From Pomacea canaliculata (Eukaryota): a DNA stretch of 64,000 nucleotides. Each line of letters starts with the position of its first letter. Within the stretch, counting starts at the first letter, position 1. The notes under the pieces are model-generated. The model was not told where the DNA came from. It searched no databases and was given only the letters and a program-made list of their open reading frames with translations. This document shows positions 40,195-47,920 of the stretch, piece after piece. The position numbers and the translations under genes were made by a program. The DNA lies in NCBI RefSeq assembly GCF_003073045.1, contig NC_037593.1:29393367-29457366 (forward strand), written 5' to 3'.

Positions 40195-41330
40195 GTAAGA
40201 ATCTCTCATATGCCGAAAATGTGTTATCAGAGTATGCTAAATACTATCTAAACGCTGATCCCGCTCGTATTTATCATAATTATCGTTGCTGACATAGAGG
40301 TTAAGCTTATCGTTACTGCGCGTGAACATCAGGGCTGCTTGTGAATATTTGTTTACTTTGTCGTACATCGATCGTTATACAGTCTATCAAAGACATGTAA
40401 AGCATTTATAATAGTCATAATAATCATTAGTACTAGATTTCAACATCTCTGTTTTTTTCCATGATTAATAAAAGGCTAATTAAACTGCATAAACAATTCG
40501 TCTACTGACCTAGTTAATGCTCTGGCCTTAGCAGCATCATATTGTGCAATCGCCACCATCTGGTTAATAAAAACACACATCGATTGAAAACAAGTTTGGA
40601 TCAGTTATTCATCATATAAATCTGAATATCTGTATGCAGTCGTGTACTGGCGAATTCAACAGTCATATAATAATGTGTAGTAGTTTCAGGATCGCAATGA
40701 ATGTTATACTTTACTCTTGTAGCATAATGTAGATTACCGAAGTAGGAACTATAATACACTGAAAGTGTGTTATCAGAGTATTCCAATACAATCTAAACAC
40801 TGATCCCGCTCACACTTATCACAATTATCGTTACTAAATTTGAGGTTAAGCTTATCGTTACAAAATTTGAGGTTAAGCTTATCGTTACTCCATGTGAACA
40901 TGATATGAGGGCTGCTTGTGAAAAGAGTATTTGTTTATTGTTTAATTATGTTGTGCATAGTCATATAGTCTATCAGAGACATGTAAAGCATTTATAATAG
41001 AATCATTAGAGTACTAGATTTCAGCACCTCTGGTTTTTTTGGGTTTTTTTTGCAAGATTTTAAAAAAGGCTAATTAAACAGCTTAAACAATTCGTCTACT
41101 GACTTAGTTAATACTCTGGCGTTATCAGCATTATATTGTGTGATTGATACCATCTGGTTAATAAAAAGTCGCATTGATTGAGAAAACGTTTGGATTATAA
41201 ATCTGAATTTCTATATGCAGTCGTGTACTGGCGAATTTAATAGTCATATAATAATTTGTAGTAGTTTCAGGATCGCAATGAATGTTATGCTTTACTCTTG
41301 CAGCATAATGTAACCATTCCATATTTTATT
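40195..41330. repeat. Tandem duplication, two copies of a roughly 565-bp unit, in the first intron or intergenic space upstream of the RING gene
   Basis: Unit 1 at about 40195-40760 and unit 2 at about 40760-41330 share long blocks (...gtgttatcagagtat.ccaa.aca.tctaaacactgatcccgctc...gaggttaagcttatcgttac...catttataata...ctaattaaac.gc.taaacaattcgtctactgac.tagttaat.ctctgg...cagtcgtgtactggcgaatt.aa.agtcatataataat.tgtagtagtttcaggatcgcaatgaatgttat.ctttactcttg.agcataatgta). Confidence 0.8.
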
Positions 41331-42347
41331 AGGCAAGAGAGCATTGATATATAACTTTACAATTATATTGTGGCTTATTTTTTGTATTGGTTAGTATTGA
41401 AGCTCATTCCTGCATGTTCATGTTTGCATGTGCAAGCACACACATTTTCCCTGCAGCCTAATACAATGATATCTAGGCAAGTTAAGAGGAAACTATACTG
41501 ATGGTGTATAGGAGCAACTTGATAATTCTAGACCATCATGTTGCTGGGTTGCTGCCCCAACTAAGAGCAGCTTCACAATTCTGGTCGTGTTGAGTTGACT
41601 GAAAGGGTGAAACAAACATCTTGATTTTGGTTACTCATATCCTATAACAAAATCTCTTCGGCTCACAGTTTATTTGTTTAATTTATGATTGTTTTTATTT
41701 TTCAGATTACTCATTCATTTAACACCACAAGACAGCCTGAACTGGTTTCAGCTGCTCAGTATCTGAGTGTTTCTGGTCTTCACAGTGGTGGTAGCCAGGT
41801 CATCAGAGGGAGATAAACACTCTTAATCCTGTTGACAAGATGGAAATAGTTTTAGAGTAATCTCTTCCACTGGCATGATTAATAAACACTTAGTTGATTT
41901 AGATTTTTTTGTCCATATTTAATTATGGAAGTGATTCAGTACTAAGGCATGGAAAGTATTGTAAGACATCACATGAAATACCTGTATATTTAATTGTGGA
42001 AGTGAGGCAGAGCTAATGCATGAAAAGTATTGTAAGACATCACATGACAGTGCCTGTATCATTATTGGTCTGTAATATCTTGGAATTCTCCATAAGGTTT
42101 TTGATCAAACTACTTTTGATATTATCCACAGTGTTTGACTTGTTAAACATCATTTAATAACAAGAGCAAACTTCATGTGAAGAATATTTCATCAGCAAAC
42201 TTCTGTTTGGACTTAAGCATTTTTTTAAAGTCAAAACAGACATTAATAATAAAAACTTTTATCCTGAAAAGATATATCACAGTCAACATTATCAAATTTT
42301 CCACCAAAACAAGGAATTTTTATAGCAGTATATTCTTTGGCTGCCTT

Positions 42348-42578
42348 ATGGGCGCAGGGGCAGTGACCGGACATAGTCAGTTTCGTGGCAGTCGAGTTTT
42401 TCCCTCACCAGCCCCTGCAGGGAACTCAGCCACAACCTCATCAGACACCTCTTTTACTAGAACTGCACCTAAGGAGAAATCAGATTTACAAGGACAACCT
42501 GGTATCAAAGCAACCATGTCTAACAAGCCATTATCTTGTGAGACCTGTGATGTGGTCTTTAATCTGTTTAAGAGGCGG
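42348..42578 (+). CDS. RNF34/RFFL: RNF34/RFFL-family E3 ubiquitin ligase (FYVE-like plus RING), first clearly conserved coding exon. The 5' boundary is unresolved.
   Basis: Translation MGAGAVTGHSQFRGSRVFPSPAPAG...KPLSCETCDVVFNLFKRR aligns with human RNF34 MGTGAVRGQQSAFAG...IVCKACGLSFSVFRKK. Donor CGG|GTGAGT, phase 0. In-frame acceptors lie upstream at 42325/42326 and 42230/42231. Confidence 0.7.
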
Positions 42579-43018
42579 GTGAGTTGGAACACCTGCTAAT
42601 TATATATGTATGTGTGTGTCTGCGCGCATGTGTGCATGCTTGTGCATGTTTTGATTGCCTTTTAATGGTAAATAGTGTGTGATGTATGGATGTGTGCATC
42701 CATGGTGCATGGTTGGTGACATTTAATGCCATGATTTAGACTATACAGTGCCATGCTAGTCTAGACCTGTAAATAATTGTCACTGCAGCTGGCATTTCTT
42801 ACTTTTGATGTTCTTTTGTGATAAGTATTTACTGTTATCAATATTATATGTAATGTACATGCATAACATATACATAATATATGCATTGCATGCAACATTT
42901 GTACTTCTGAGTGCATTTTCCTCTTTTTGTGGGTGTAGGAATAAAGAGTTGCTTAATCTGTTCAGTCAAAGCCTAAAGATATCAAATGCATACTTCTCTT
43001 TCTACAACTACTTTACAG

Positions 43019-43327
43019 AAATTCTGCAAAGACTGTCGCCGCTGCTTCTGTTCCACCTGCCTACCCAAACCAAGCAATAATAATGGAAGAAATGGTCGTC
43101 AATGTTCCAAGTGTATCATTCTAACATCTGGCAAATTTACTAGACAGATGTTGCAGGCATGGAAAATCAAAGACATGCGATGTTTTTTAGATGCCCGAAG
43201 CATTTCAACATCATCATGTAAAGAAAAACATGATTTGATAGATCTTCTCTTGCTTCATTTCTGCTTGGAGTCTAATTCTACACATGTGGAACAGGCAGAG
43301 CATGATCGGCTAGTTGATGAACTTGCT
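43019..43327 (+). CDS. RNF34/RFFL: RNF34/RFFL-like exon: FYVE-like zinc finger and helical region
   Basis: Acceptor ctacaactactttacag|AAA. Translation KFCKDCRRCFCSTCLPK...RQCSKC...KIKDMRCFLDARSISTSSCKEKHDLIDLLL aligns with human RNF34 HVCCDCKKDFCSVCSV...RRCSTC...KVKDLRQYLILRNIPIDTCREKEDLVDLVL. Donor GCT|GTAAGT, phase 0. Confidence 0.75.
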
Positions 43328-44215
43328 GTAAGTTTTAGGATAAAGTTGTCTTAATCCATTAATCATTTCCTACAAGCAGAGAGGGCCTGTGATCAAAGTC
43401 TTAAATTTCTAGCATCAGACAGCTGTTTTGGCTGGAGAAATGATCTCTTCTGGGATAAGTACTGTTTTGCACTGTTCTAATCATTAATCATTGATGCATT
43501 ACTCATTGCACAAGGGGCTACCTTAAGCTGATTGAGCACACAAAATTAAAAATGATATTTAACAGATACATTGTGAATAGTGCTGATCGTTGGCATGAAG
43601 CTCATTGGTCCTGCCATTAACCAGTGAGGTGTTATAATAATTACAGAGCAGAATGCAGTCTAGCAGCTTTTGCAGTTTCACACCTTTGCCCAGTCAGGTG
43701 TCTATGGCAGAACATTTCTCCAATTCTGCTATAAGTGAAGCTACAGGTGAGGGAAGCTTCTTATCCCTTTTGTGAAGTGTGGCTCATGTAGTCAACCACA
43801 TTTTCTACATCCTCTATTATGTGGTGGTCTGTTATGTTTGCTATGGTCAAGTTTTGTAAAGGGGGAACACCAGCATCTTGTGGCTTTTAGACCCAATGTG
43901 TTCCTCTTGTTCTCTCATTAATGATTTCATTGATGGAAATAATTTTGTTTTTGTGTGTTTTCATGAGTCTGTGTCTTCTTTAATTTACCAAAATTATTTA
44001 GTTTAAAATTGCAGCAGTAAAATGATATGAATGTGAAGCAGTGTTTTCTATAGGAAACTAATCAGATTAGAAAAATTTATAACAATCCTCCCCTACCCTA
44101 CCTAAAATGGGGATGAAAACATGCTCACATCTTCTCAGTCTTCTTTACTCTCTGTTTCTATTTCTATTTAGCGTTAGTCTAGATTTTCCTGTTTGTTGCA
44201 GACTCATCATATCAG

Positions 44216-44401
44216 GAACAACAGGAACAGTCATCTTCTGTACAAAGCACTGGCAATAACAGTAGCAATAGAGGACTACAAAATGTCACAGAAGACACTG
44301 AACGGGGTAATGATGAAAGTGATGGTGGTGATAGAAACCTTCGAGAGAGACAAGAGCAAGAGACTCTTAGGAGATATCAGGAGGAACTGAGGCATGAGGA
44401 G
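44216..44401 (+). CDS. RNF34/RFFL: RNF34/RFFL-like exon: Ser/Glu-rich acidic linker
   Basis: Only the acceptor at catcatatcag|GAA (44215/44216) keeps the frame from the previous exon. The earlier AG at 44200/44201 would need phase 1. Translation EQQEQSSSVQSTGNNSSNRGLQNVTEDTERGNDESDGGDRNLRERQEQETLRRYQEELRHEE. Donor GAG|GTTGGT is weak, so the 3' end is uncertain. Confidence 0.5.
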
Positions 44402-44836
44402 GTTGGTTTTGCATGGAATTCATACAGGTTTCATACAGAGATTAGTGAGTGCTGTGAAATGCCAAATGTTTTGCTGTAGGTTTTTTCTTTTTTTTTCACT
44501 TTTTAAAATTATTTTCACAATTACTCCCGTCGGAGGTGTTTTTTTTGGGTTATTTACATGGACTGTATGTGTTTGTGTGAGATGATAGTTTGAGTGGAAT
44601 TTAGTTGTTATTAAGTTTTTATTATAAGCCAGTTGTTTTACCACATCTTGTAATTTCTCCGCGTGAGATAATAAAGTTAAATTGAATTGAATTTTAAAGA
44701 AGCAAGATGGTTGTGCATAAGGTAAAATAGCTCTATATTTTTGCTTTGTTCATTATTAAGATTCACATTCTTTACAAACGCATGCAAGAATCCAGAGGAA
44801 GGGTTTTTTATTTTGGTTTTTTTTTTCCTTCTTCAG

Positions 44837-45035
44837 CCTGAAACTAGACCAGGAATTAAACGTGCCACTCTGGAGGATGTCAAGTGTGAGTCAGATGTGG
44901 ATAGCTTGACGGTGCGGCAGCTGAAAGAGATTCTTGTGAACAATTTTGTGGACTACCGTGGTTGTTGTGAAAAACGAGAGCTGAGAGACCATGCTAAGAG
45001 GCTCTGGAAAGAAGACCAAGCAAACAAGCAGAGAG
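44837..45035 (+). CDS. RNF34/RFFL: RNF34/RFFL-like exon: conserved pre-RING helical segment
   Basis: Acceptor ttttttttccttcttcag|CCT. Translation [66 protein letters not shown] aligns with human RNF34 ...[49 protein letters not shown]. Donor AGAG|GTTTGT, phase 1. Confidence 0.8.
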
Positions 45036-46168
45036 GTTTGTGACCTCTAGTCTTCAGTCATAGGATAGATATTAAAACTACATAATAGAGAAAGTGAATG
45101 ACTGGGATGACGACATCTTTTTTTTTAATGCCATTACACATGACTGCCAGTTTGAGTAATTTTCCCCCCTTAATTAAAAAAAATTTTGTAATCAGTGGTT
45201 TGATGAACTCTTATAAATAATTGTTTTCTCTGTAGTGGTGAAGAAGTTTTTTTAATCTGGCAATCCTTTTACCATGAATCGTTTGAGAAGACCTGGATTT
45301 GATGAATTTGATAAACCTCTAAGTTTACCCGGTAACCCTGCTAGAATTCAAGATTACTCTTCCTCATAAGGTGCAGCCAAAATTGGTTGCCAGATTTAGA
45401 ACAGTATTTAAAAAAATAAAAGAAACTGTTCAGTGCAAGTGATGACTCAGGGGAGACATTCCAAACTTTTAGGGCCCATGCTTCAGTCTTGGAAATGTCC
45501 TTTCAATCAGTATGATTTAAGATATAGGGTAAATTGTGGAAGATTTTGTTTTGCATTAACTTTTATTTATGTATAACCCCATTTCTTAAACACTATTAAG
45601 AATAATAGTAAATTTAATTTATTGGGTGCGTGATCCCTCCATCAAAGGTTAGCTCAAAGCACTTGACAAAAAAAAATAGACAAAATAACAACACATACAC
45701 GGACACATACAACAAAAGGTGTGTTATGTCTGTAGAATACCACAAGGCAGAATGAAGAAAGATACATCTATATTTGCTCCTGGCTTTCTCAGTCCAGTTG
45801 AATTGTGAGGCTGCAAAATGCTCCTGTCCACATGACAGTTATTCAGCAAAGTAAAAGTTAGCTTGTATAGCTCCCTGTCCATGCCTGTCTGGCAAGCTTA
45901 AGGCATTTGATATAACCAGTCAAATGAACTATGTCAATTGTGACGTCTCCATGTTGAAATAGAATCAAAGCCATAGACGTGGATTGAAGGAGCACCACAA
46001 TCCAAACGAATGATGGCAGGCACATTAAAAGCACACACCAACACGAAAAAGACATCAGATAATATAATACCACAGAACACAACACCCACCAGCCAGTTAG
46101 AAGGGACATCAATCTTGTCAAATTGCTAAATCCTTTTTCATCTCTAACAATTTTGTGTGTGTACACAG

Positions 46169-46371
46169 CAACAGCGGCACATGAGAAATCAAAAGCAGCC
46201 GATGCTAGTTGTGGGAAGATTTTTGCAATGCCTTGGGTACTACTTGACCCTAAGCACAACATGTGTAAGATCTGCATGGATGCTAGCATTGATTGCATCT
46301 TGTTAGAGTATGGTCACATGTGCAAAATGTGGGAAGCGTCTGGCAGACAGTACATCACTCTTGTCAAATGA
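46169..46371 (+). pseudogene. Decayed tandem duplicate of the terminal RING exon (pseudo-exon)
   Basis: It is near-identical to 46620-46861 and includes the acceptor tgtacacag|CA. A roughly 10-bp deletion (ttgacatgta) and a roughly 18-bp deletion (tgtcccatctgcagacag) remove the last RING Cys ligands. The translation ends ...[35 protein letters not shown]. Confidence 0.65.
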
Positions 46372-46619
46372 ACTGTGTTGATTAAGATGTCTCCATGTTG
46401 AAGTAGAATCGAAGCCATAGACATGGATTGAAGGAGCACCACAATCCAAACGAATGATGGCAGGCACATCAAAAGCACACACCAACACGAAAAAGACATC
46501 CATCAGATAAGACAAAAATACAACAGAACATAGCACCCACCAGCCAATTAGAAGGGACATCACTCTTGTCAAATTGCTAAATCCTTTCTCATCTCTAACA
46601 ATTTTTTTTTTGTACACAG

Positions 46620-46861
46620 CAACAGCGGCACATGAGGAATCAAAAGCACCCAATGCTAGTTCTGGGAAGACTTCTGCAATGCCTGGAGTACCACTTGACC
46701 TGGAGTATGACATCTGTAAGATTTGCATGGATGCTAGCATTGATTGCATCTTGTTAGAGTGTGGTCACATGTTGACATGTACAAAATGTGGGAAGCGTCT
46801 GGCAGACTGTCCCATCTGCAGACAGTATATCACTCGTGTCGTCCATATATTCCGATCCTGA
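46620..46861 (+). CDS. RNF34/RFFL: RNF34/RFFL-like terminal exon encoding the C3HC4 RING finger (stop TGA 46859..46861)
   Basis: Acceptor tttttttttgtacacag|CA. Translation (A)[79 protein letters not shown] matches human RNF34 [49 protein letters not shown] almost residue for residue. Total CDS 1167 nt, 388 aa. Confidence 0.85.
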
Positions 46862-47920
46862 TAATAAAGTGTACATGGATTTTTAAATATTTTTTTCATT
46901 CCCTTTTGTGCTAAGAATAATTTAGCAGAGAGTTTGTTAATTTGTATGACAGGTGGCTGATTGTGATGTGATGACTAGAGTGGTTTAGTGAAAGAACCTT
47001 AATTTCTTTTTCGATTAATAGGTTGCTAAAATTTTTTAAGTGCTTGCCACAATAAATGATGAATTACCAGACAAGGGAGCAGTTTAAAAGAATACAAAGG
47101 ATACAATGAACTTAAAAATGACATAGTTCCAGATCCTAATGTTATTGTAAGGAGTTATGTTTTGTAAACTTCATTTCATTAAGAATGCCCAGCTTTATAT
47201 TTTTTTGACATGTACTTCTTTCCTTGAAGTTTTATATTTTAAAATATGTTGATGATATTTTTATTTGTATATTTGATGAAAATATCTGACTTGCAAAGAT
47301 GAAAATGCAGCATTTTGTACCAGACATCACAAAATCCTACTTAAACAAAAAGCCTTATTGAATGAGAATTTTTTTTTTTTTCAACGCTGATTGCTTCTAA
47401 GACTTGACACATTGTACTCACATTTTTGTTAATCTCATATTATCAGGAAGGTGTGCACATTTATGGATTGTTCCTTTATCAGTATTATTTCCAGGTACAG
47501 ATGCTACTAGGTTTTGTTTCCATTAATTTAAGTTTTTGAGATTAACTTTTACAATTAATTTTGTGAAAGCAGAATTATAGCAACTTTGAACTAACCAGAT
47601 CTTAATGATTCTGCTGAGGGGTTATTAGGATCTTCACATGCTGTATGCAGCTTTTCACCAACCACGATGGTTATGAAATGTCCATTTCCTTATTTTAGAA
47701 TAAGATAGGCAGACATCAGTTGGGATACCCAATAAGAAATAAATTTCATCGTAACTCCAAAGGGAATTCATTCCTGTTTTAAATACGACAGTTCCTTCCC
47801 TAGAATATTAGATAGTTCTTGAACATTTTAATAATTAAGTCTAGCAGTTTGTCAGCTGCAAATGCTGAGGCCAAACTGATGTTATTTTTTAGTTTCATAA
47901 CATTTCTTCATATCCTCAAG

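Follow-up and report, generated by a model that had tools for sequence, protein, structure and literature searches.

What becomes of a last exon that is copied in tandem within its own gene? The question is raised by a stretch of 64,000 nucleotides of the snail Pomacea canaliculata (RefSeq assembly GCF_003073045.1, contig NC_037593.1, positions 29,393,367 to 29,457,366 of the forward strand), called here the window. Its plus strand carries an RNF34-like ubiquitin-ligase gene, identified by searches with its intact RING peptide and with a gene model built by hand, both of which lead to mollusc RNF34 proteins, and the segment holding the last acceptor and the RING-encoding part of the last exon is present twice. 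An earlier inspection of the letters alone, the sequence-only reading, had proposed that the upstream copy either serves as a terminal exon, giving a RING-truncated isoform with a possible dominant-negative action, or is a case of pseudo-exonisation. The analysis presented here points to another outcome: a tandem duplication, apparently lineage-specific, that probably gave rise to an optional, frame-neutral cassette exon of 96 nt (5a) and to a new intron, with the remnant of the copied RING decaying inside the latter.

Tandem Repeats Finder (TRF) reports a single array at the locus (45919-46772; period 451, 1.9 copies, 88% matches, score 1372), by far the strongest and the largest of the window. 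A gapped alignment of the upstream copy (copy 1) with the downstream one (copy 2) yields 393 matches, 40 mismatches and 15 gap columns, and a blastn search of the unit against the window returns it exactly twice. The tandem duplication is real and far exceeds chance similarity: the direct repeat of about 450 bp, comprising acceptor and last exon, that the sequence-only reading had described is recovered by all three approaches, and its upstream copy is not intact. Its start had been placed about 30 nt too far left, at 45890 instead of 45919. The duplicated segment, about 450-470 bp long, extends from 257 bp 5' of the last acceptor to 23 nt short of the stop codon, and each copy takes in branch site, acceptor and RING-coding last-exon sequence. 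The breakpoint, marked by a slash, lies at ...AACCA/GTCAAATGAAC... on the left side and at ...ATCACTCGT/GTCGTCCAT... on the right. A dispersed repeat or a transposable element as the origin of the unit is ruled out by there being just two copies in the window. The possibility that the 250-nt intronic half of the unit is itself an older, decayed exon copy was likewise rejected, as the Smith-Waterman scores between the halves are no better than those of shuffled sequence, being attained by 72 and by 287 of 500 shuffles.

Copy 2 supplies the last coding exon of the gene, 5b. Its RING follows the spacing C-X2-C-X11-C-X-H-X3-C-X2-C-X6-C-X2-C with all eight zinc ligands, matches PF13920 with about 48 bits and is nearly identical to the RING of other caenogastropod RNF34 proteins. 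The intact C3HC4 RING expected of this copy is thereby corroborated; calling it almost identical to that of human RNF34 was too generous, identity to the latter being about 71%. The stop codon (46859-46861) is the first of two tandem stops, TGA TAA (TGATAATAAA, 46859-46868), and the first poly(A) signal, AATAAA at 46863-46868, comes directly after it, so that the shortest 3' untranslated region (3'UTR) could be extremely short; a second signal lies at 47051. Spliced to the five upstream coding exons (42348 to 45035), the last of which ends in phase 1, exon 5b regenerates residue for residue the RefSeq isoform X2 (XP_025092507.1, 426 aa).

Copy 1 does not encode a usable RING. Zinc ligand 3 is lost through a Cys to Tyr substitution (TGT to TAT, 46309-46311), an 8-nt deletion between ACATGT direct repeats (about 46316-46321) shifts the frame across ligands 5 and 6, and a 16-nt deletion between GCAGAC direct repeats (46343-46348) removes the CPIC pair that provides ligands 7 and 8. 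As the two deletions sum to 24 nt, the frame is back in register after the second one, and it is open from the acceptor at 46169 to a TGA at 46369-46371. This stop arises at the junction from intronic sequence of copy 2 (GTC/AAATGA; intronic GTCAAATGA). Since the duplicated stretch broke off 23 nt ahead of the true stop and was joined to the intron, the new stop was made at the birth of the copy. The read-through product has no Pfam RING match, which together with the lesions confirms that the upstream RING half is decaying. Other elements of the earlier description need amendment. The upstream copy keeps its acceptor, and the first half of the RING in part, ligand 3 being lost as well; the two small deletions exist, but the frameshift does not last; the new stop is there, but it is owed to the junction and not to decay.

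The acceptors at 46169 and 46620 are both as predicted, with ACACAG/CAA in each copy, preceded by the same CTAAC branch site; the pyrimidine tract of copy 1, TTTTGTGTGTGT, is interrupted in comparison with that of copy 2, TTTTTTTTTTGT. The second RefSeq isoform, X1 (XP_025092505.1, 458 aa), is regenerated residue for residue only when 46169-46264 is spliced in and joined to 46620. It differs from X2 by 32 extra residues, which are the duplicated linker, and its RING is intact (PF13920, zf-C3HC4_3: 48.4 bits in X1 and 48.5 bits in X2, cut-off 27). With a length of 96 nt and phase 1-1, inclusion of 5a preserves both the frame and the RING. The donor of the cassette is taken from the RING itself, its GT being the second and third bases of the first RING Cys codon, followed by AAG (Lys). 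It agrees with the consensus at 5/9 positions, against 6-8/9 for the constitutive donors of the gene, and shares its GTAAG core with the exon-2 donor; the latent donor GTAAGA is also present in the intact exon 5b (46716-46721). In the RefSeq X1 model the new intron is thus bounded by a formerly exonic donor in copy 1 and an inherited acceptor in copy 2, and its GC content is 0.40, against 0.46 in the flanking exons. No AATAAA or ATTAAA occurs within 46265-46862: the upstream copy cannot end a transcript, because the duplication stopped before the 3'UTR and no poly(A) signal was copied. A terminal exon giving a RING-truncated isoform is consequently not what this copy provides, since the annotation uses its first 96 nt as an internal exon and no poly(A) signal follows. 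Pseudo-exonisation describes the 98-nt RING remnant well, but not the 96-nt part annotated as coding.

Table 1. Features of the duplicated last exon and of its host gene. Positions are those of the window; a slash within letters marks a breakpoint or splice site.
Feature	Position	Strand	Description and basis
Copy 1 (upstream)	45919-46362	+	250 nt intron, 96 nt linker coding, 98 nt RING remnant (TRF, gapped alignment, blastn)
Copy 2 (downstream)	46363-46838	+	257 nt intron and first 219 nt of the intact last exon (TRF, gapped alignment, blastn)
Duplication junction	46362/46363	+	GTC microhomology: ...ATCACTCTT/GTCAAATGAAC...
Copy-1 3' splice signals	46144-46168	+	CTAAC 46144-46148, weakened tract TTTTGTGTGTGT, ACACAG acceptor
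Cassette exon 5a	46169-46264	+	96 nt, in-frame phase 1-1, encodes (A)TAAHEKSKAADASCGKIFAMPWVLLDPKHNM; RefSeq X1 only
Cassette donor	46265-46270	+	TGT/GTAAGA, supplied by TGT-AAG (Cys-Lys) at RING zinc ligand 1
RING remnant	46265-46362	+	98 nt, 5' part of the new intron (alignment, sequence reading)
New intron	46265-46619	+	355 nt: 98-nt RING remnant and 257-nt copy-2 intronic part (X1 mapped onto the window)
Copy-2 3' splice signals	46595-46619	+	CTAAC, pyrimidine tract TTTTTTTTTTGT, ACACAG acceptor
Last coding exon 5b	46620-46861	+	Linker, intact C3HC4 RING and stop
Coding exons 1-5	42348-42578, 43019-43327, 43647-43746, 44202-44401, 44837-45035	+	Exact translation to XP_025092507.1
Alternative last exon of PVD32863.1	48425 to about 48570	+	Mapping of the GenBank model onto the window

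A course of events that would join these observations begins in the Pomacea lineage with an error of replication or repair, by which the segment would have been duplicated in tandem. Copy 1 would have inherited a full 3' splice set (CTAAC, pyrimidine tract, CAG) and, 96 nt on, a latent GTAAGA donor, and the second acceptor, 355 nt downstream, would complete a frame-neutral internal exon. Inclusion of 5a would then give X1, with a doubled 32-aa linker ahead of an intact RING, and its skipping the ancestral-type X2. The rest of copy 1, the RING remnant, would have been intronised and left to neutral decay, in which one ligand was substituted and slippage caused two deletions, each between direct repeats of 6 nt. 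From the gene models we infer that X1 is made in vivo, and the 32-aa insertion would be functionally near-neutral: the linker measures 28-42 aa among caenogastropods and varies widely in length and sequence among molluscs, so that an insertion of this size is plausibly tolerated.

The two copies are about 9% diverged and differ by five indels, with divergence unevenly spread over the unit. The intronic part shows 21 differences in 250 positions (Jukes-Cantor (JC) distance 0.089), the RING remnant 5 in 98 besides its two deletions (0.053), and the 96-nt cassette 16 in 96 (0.188). That the remnant reaches about half the intron value accords with expectation for a constrained copy 2 beside a free copy 1. 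Divergence is highest in the cassette (p = 0.03 against the intron, 0.01 against the remnant), whose 13 changed codons are nonsynonymous in 13/13 cases, an outcome obtained in 2.8% of simulations. By the Nei-Gojobori method the nonsynonymous rate (dN) is 0.21 and the synonymous rate (dS) 0.16; their ratio, about 1.3, lacks significance. Positive selection is not upheld for the cassette, as neither this ratio nor the marginal excess over the intron carries it; what can safely be said is that purifying selection on the cassette/linker is not detectable, and its acceleration is no more than a hint. As to the age of the event, both copies carry a Pomacea-specific MDAS where other orthologues have MDAA, which suggests that the duplication is lineage-specific, and the orthologous proteins of other molluscs have a single linker and a single RING. 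The motif preceding the RING is approximately DPE[HQ]DV in other caenogastropods, LDPKHNM in 5a and LDLEYDI in 5b; with both departing from the common form, both copies have changed since they split.

Several points weigh against the birth of a cassette exon. X1 is a computational RefSeq model derived from the same assembly as the window. Exact look-up of five open reading frames (ORFs) on and around the duplication in a public protein collection returned no independent ORF or contig with upstream-copy sequence, and no independent match came from searching for homologues of exon 4, 5a and the remnant combined. The acceptor tract of 5a is weaker and its donor lacks an exonic AG, so inclusion may be low; as it shows no sign of amino-acid constraint, 5a may represent noise in splicing instead of a functional exon. 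Pushed further, such points would make the whole of copy 1 a dead relic, with 5a never or negligibly spliced, X1 an artefact or rare noise, and X2 the only isoform that matters. A cassette evolving at or above the neutral rate without purifying selection would suit a relic, and so would its open frame of 32 codons, which is expected by chance in 76% of simulations; the weaker pyrimidine tract, the donor with its 5/9 consensus positions and the lack of any independent protein or contig record with 5a sequence go the same way, and the GenBank submitter's model skips 5a. However, RefSeq holds both X1 and X2. Gnomon builds alternative isoforms from transcript alignments and is not known to do so ab initio, which would speak for a transcribed 5a. 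Moreover, branch site, acceptor and GTAAG core have stayed intact despite the divergence of the copies, and 5a is exactly frame-neutral. A dead relic is, on balance, unlikely, though it deserves to be kept in mind, and an optional cassette exon is the reading retained here.

The remaining explanations fare less well. Copy 1 could act as an alternative coding end, giving a 413-aa protein with a broken RING, possibly a dominant-negative E3. The frame is indeed open from the acceptor to the junction TGA, and the product would keep the FYVE-like, SAP and third domains while having no RING match. With the new intron retained, no exon junction would lie 3' of the stop; an mRNA without an exon junction downstream of its stop would escape nonsense-mediated decay. 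Such a product requires, however, the retention of a 355-nt intron with good splice signals, as no poly(A) signal follows copy 1; its C-terminus is found in no annotated isoform, no member of the 90% cluster of the host protein and no match of the search with exon 4, 5a and remnant, and the lesions, deletions of 8 nt and 16 nt and the replacement of Cys by Tyr, resemble neutral decay and not maintained sequence. The chance that copy 1 works in this way is small. There is also a broader proposal, in which the duplication created regulated E3 diversity, either by adaptive divergence of the cassette/linker or through an intron-retained, RING-dead, dominant-negative isoform; we regard it as improbable. 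As for an assembly artefact, in which mis-joined haplotypes or a mis-assembled repeat would hide a genome that is truly single-copy, no independent contig spanning the junction was found, the Logan contigs ending at 45668. But the copies stand about 9% and five indels apart, against 0-2% between the window and the Logan contigs, which come from other sequencing runs; the join is a clean microhomology join in unique sequence, with no gap; and the coding sequence of RefSeq X1 has both copy-specific linkers in series. An artefact is barely credible.

The junction itself carries an 18-mer, ACATCACTCTTGTCAAAT (46352-46369), that recurs identically at an intronic site (46557-46574) and nowhere else in the window; a near-match is seen at 46106-46123. 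The 3' half of the motif, GTCAAAT, is the start of the duplicated unit. At the end of the intact exon, ATATCACTCGTGTC, two positions depart from the intronic motif, and the end of copy 1 has the motif bases at both, a coincidence whose chance is roughly estimated at 2e-4. The junction may therefore be a templated patch, laid down by serial template switching at the time of duplication, or else the trace of a later short conversion, a suggestion to which low to moderate confidence is attached.

Alternative splicing born from tandem exon duplication, reportedly the subject of work by Kondrashov & Koonin in 2001 and by Letunic, Copley & Bork in 2002, is said to involve mostly mutually exclusive, full-length homologous exons. 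The snail gene is alike in that a duplicated exon yields alternative isoforms. Unlike mutually exclusive exons, it uses only the 5' 96 nt of the copy, beside the paralogue, and discards the domain half. The two features that define an alternative terminal or mutually exclusive exon, an own poly(A) signal and a usable domain, are missing from copy 1.

A different precedent, agreeing with the snail gene in nearly every point of layout, is the potato gene for RNA-dependent RNA polymerase (RdRp; Ma, Lan & Niu, PMC4974935), in which a tandem duplicate across an intron-exon boundary led to a new intron. In both genes the duplicate reaches from the 3' end of an intron into the 5' part of the exon that follows, the new intron has its branch site, pyrimidine tract and CAG from the parental one, a cryptic GTAAG donor is drawn from formerly exonic sequence, and the duplicated coding stretch is added to the mRNA. 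In the snail, by contrast, the duplicate concerns the last, RING-encoding exon, and about 98 nt of domain-coding sequence are intronised, against 10 nt in potato; the copies are older, with 9% divergence and indels against 10 differences; and the annotation makes inclusion of 5a optional (X1 versus X2). For potato, reads verify both the splicing and the phylogenetic polarity, whereas the snail case is known from sequence and annotation. In the model of Rogers (1989) and Gao & Lynch (2009), reviewed in PMC3443670, the two splice sites of a new intron come from a tandem duplication internal to the gene. In its classic form a duplicated exonic AGGT gives both sites and leaves the coding sequence unchanged; 'imprecise' intron gain draws on latent splice sites within the duplicate and lengthens the coding sequence by some nucleotides (PMC3443670). 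The snail case fits the imprecise variant: unlike in the AGGT model, it uses a real acceptor that existed beforehand, and its coding sequence grows by 96 nt.

As far as we found, the locus is a fresh instance of a known route by which tandem duplication adds introns and exons; it is implicit in the RefSeq isoforms and apparently undescribed, no paper naming accessions of the gene having been found in the literature. Well-documented young cases of exon or intron birth by tandem duplication are few (PMC4974935). This one is easy to read, with both breakpoints and the inherited branch site and acceptor still visible and the latent donor lying in the first RING Cys-Lys codons, and it lets half of a zinc-finger domain be seen becoming intron through slippage deletions. 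Questions of RNF34/RFFL function are untouched by it, unless the RING-dead read-through or the long-linker isoform proves to be regulated.

The host protein has mollusc and vertebrate RNF34/rififylin as its closest named relatives. The best match of the gene model is P. canaliculata C0Q70_08310 (PVD32863.1), the exons of which are 100% identical to the window, and the 90% cluster of this protein includes both RefSeq isoforms. Pfam recognises the SAP domain (SAP_RNF34_RFFL, PF23632, 35.4 bits) and the RNF34L-like third domain (PF22968, 55.5 bits; cut-off 27 for each); a FYVE-like finger (PF01363) reaches 24.4 bits, slightly below its cut-off of 27.8, with the Cys pattern CETC…CKDC…CSTC…CSKC visible. 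The snail gene thus shares with RNF34 (CARP1) and RFFL (CARP2) the SAP domain, the third domain and a C-terminal C3HC4 RING, and perhaps the FYVE-like finger, which scores below threshold; it departs from them by the doubled linker, seen in no other orthologue listed. By its domains the protein is a member of the RNF34/RFFL family; an E3 activity and an anti-apoptotic role are putative.

The GenBank model PVD32863.1 ends differently. It leaves 5b at the latent donor TCT/GTAAGA (46715/46716) and continues with a 47-aa tail from 48425, giving a protein without a RING. If true, the model would describe an isoform devoid of the RING. Among 1.84 billion representatives, searched exhaustively with HMMER, the tail has no homologue beyond the model itself, and a conserved RING-less isoform that uses the 48425 exon was rejected, since the tail is present in PVD32863.1 alone; the exon is probably a mis-model. 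For annotation it is of some value that the GenBank model lacks the RING, while the RefSeq isoforms differ only by the duplicated 96 nt.

On the minus strand, two ATG-initiated ORFs of 146 aa (45858-46298) and 148 aa (46303-46749) traverse the respective copies, intronic part included. Neither has a Pfam match, and at the indels of 4 nt and 3 nt one copy falls out of frame with the other. Both ORFs are most likely non-coding, and a minus-strand gene in the unit is not supported, given the lack of a Pfam match and a frame that is not kept between the copies. The unit has no Rfam match at E <=1, and hence no recognised structured RNA.

Some further observations concern the flanks of the duplication. 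All long Logan contigs stop at 45668, adjoining an A9 run. A 168-bp segment (44526-44693) within the intron 44401/44837 is absent from several Logan genomic contigs (L001, L002, L003 and L006), which are otherwise about 98-99% identical to the window, as would be seen with a polymorphic indel or with a difference between close species. Another tandem duplication is found 5' of the RNF34-like gene, at 40240-41312, with two copies about 545-594 bp apart that are 83-94% identical in three blocks; TRF does not report it, because its period exceeds 500. The Logan contigs give a secondary match at 40678-40731, inside this duplication. Closer to the gene, a 71-bp unit is present twice (86% matches) at 41915-42059, about 290 bp 5' of the start codon at 42348, in what may be the promoter or 5'UTR region.

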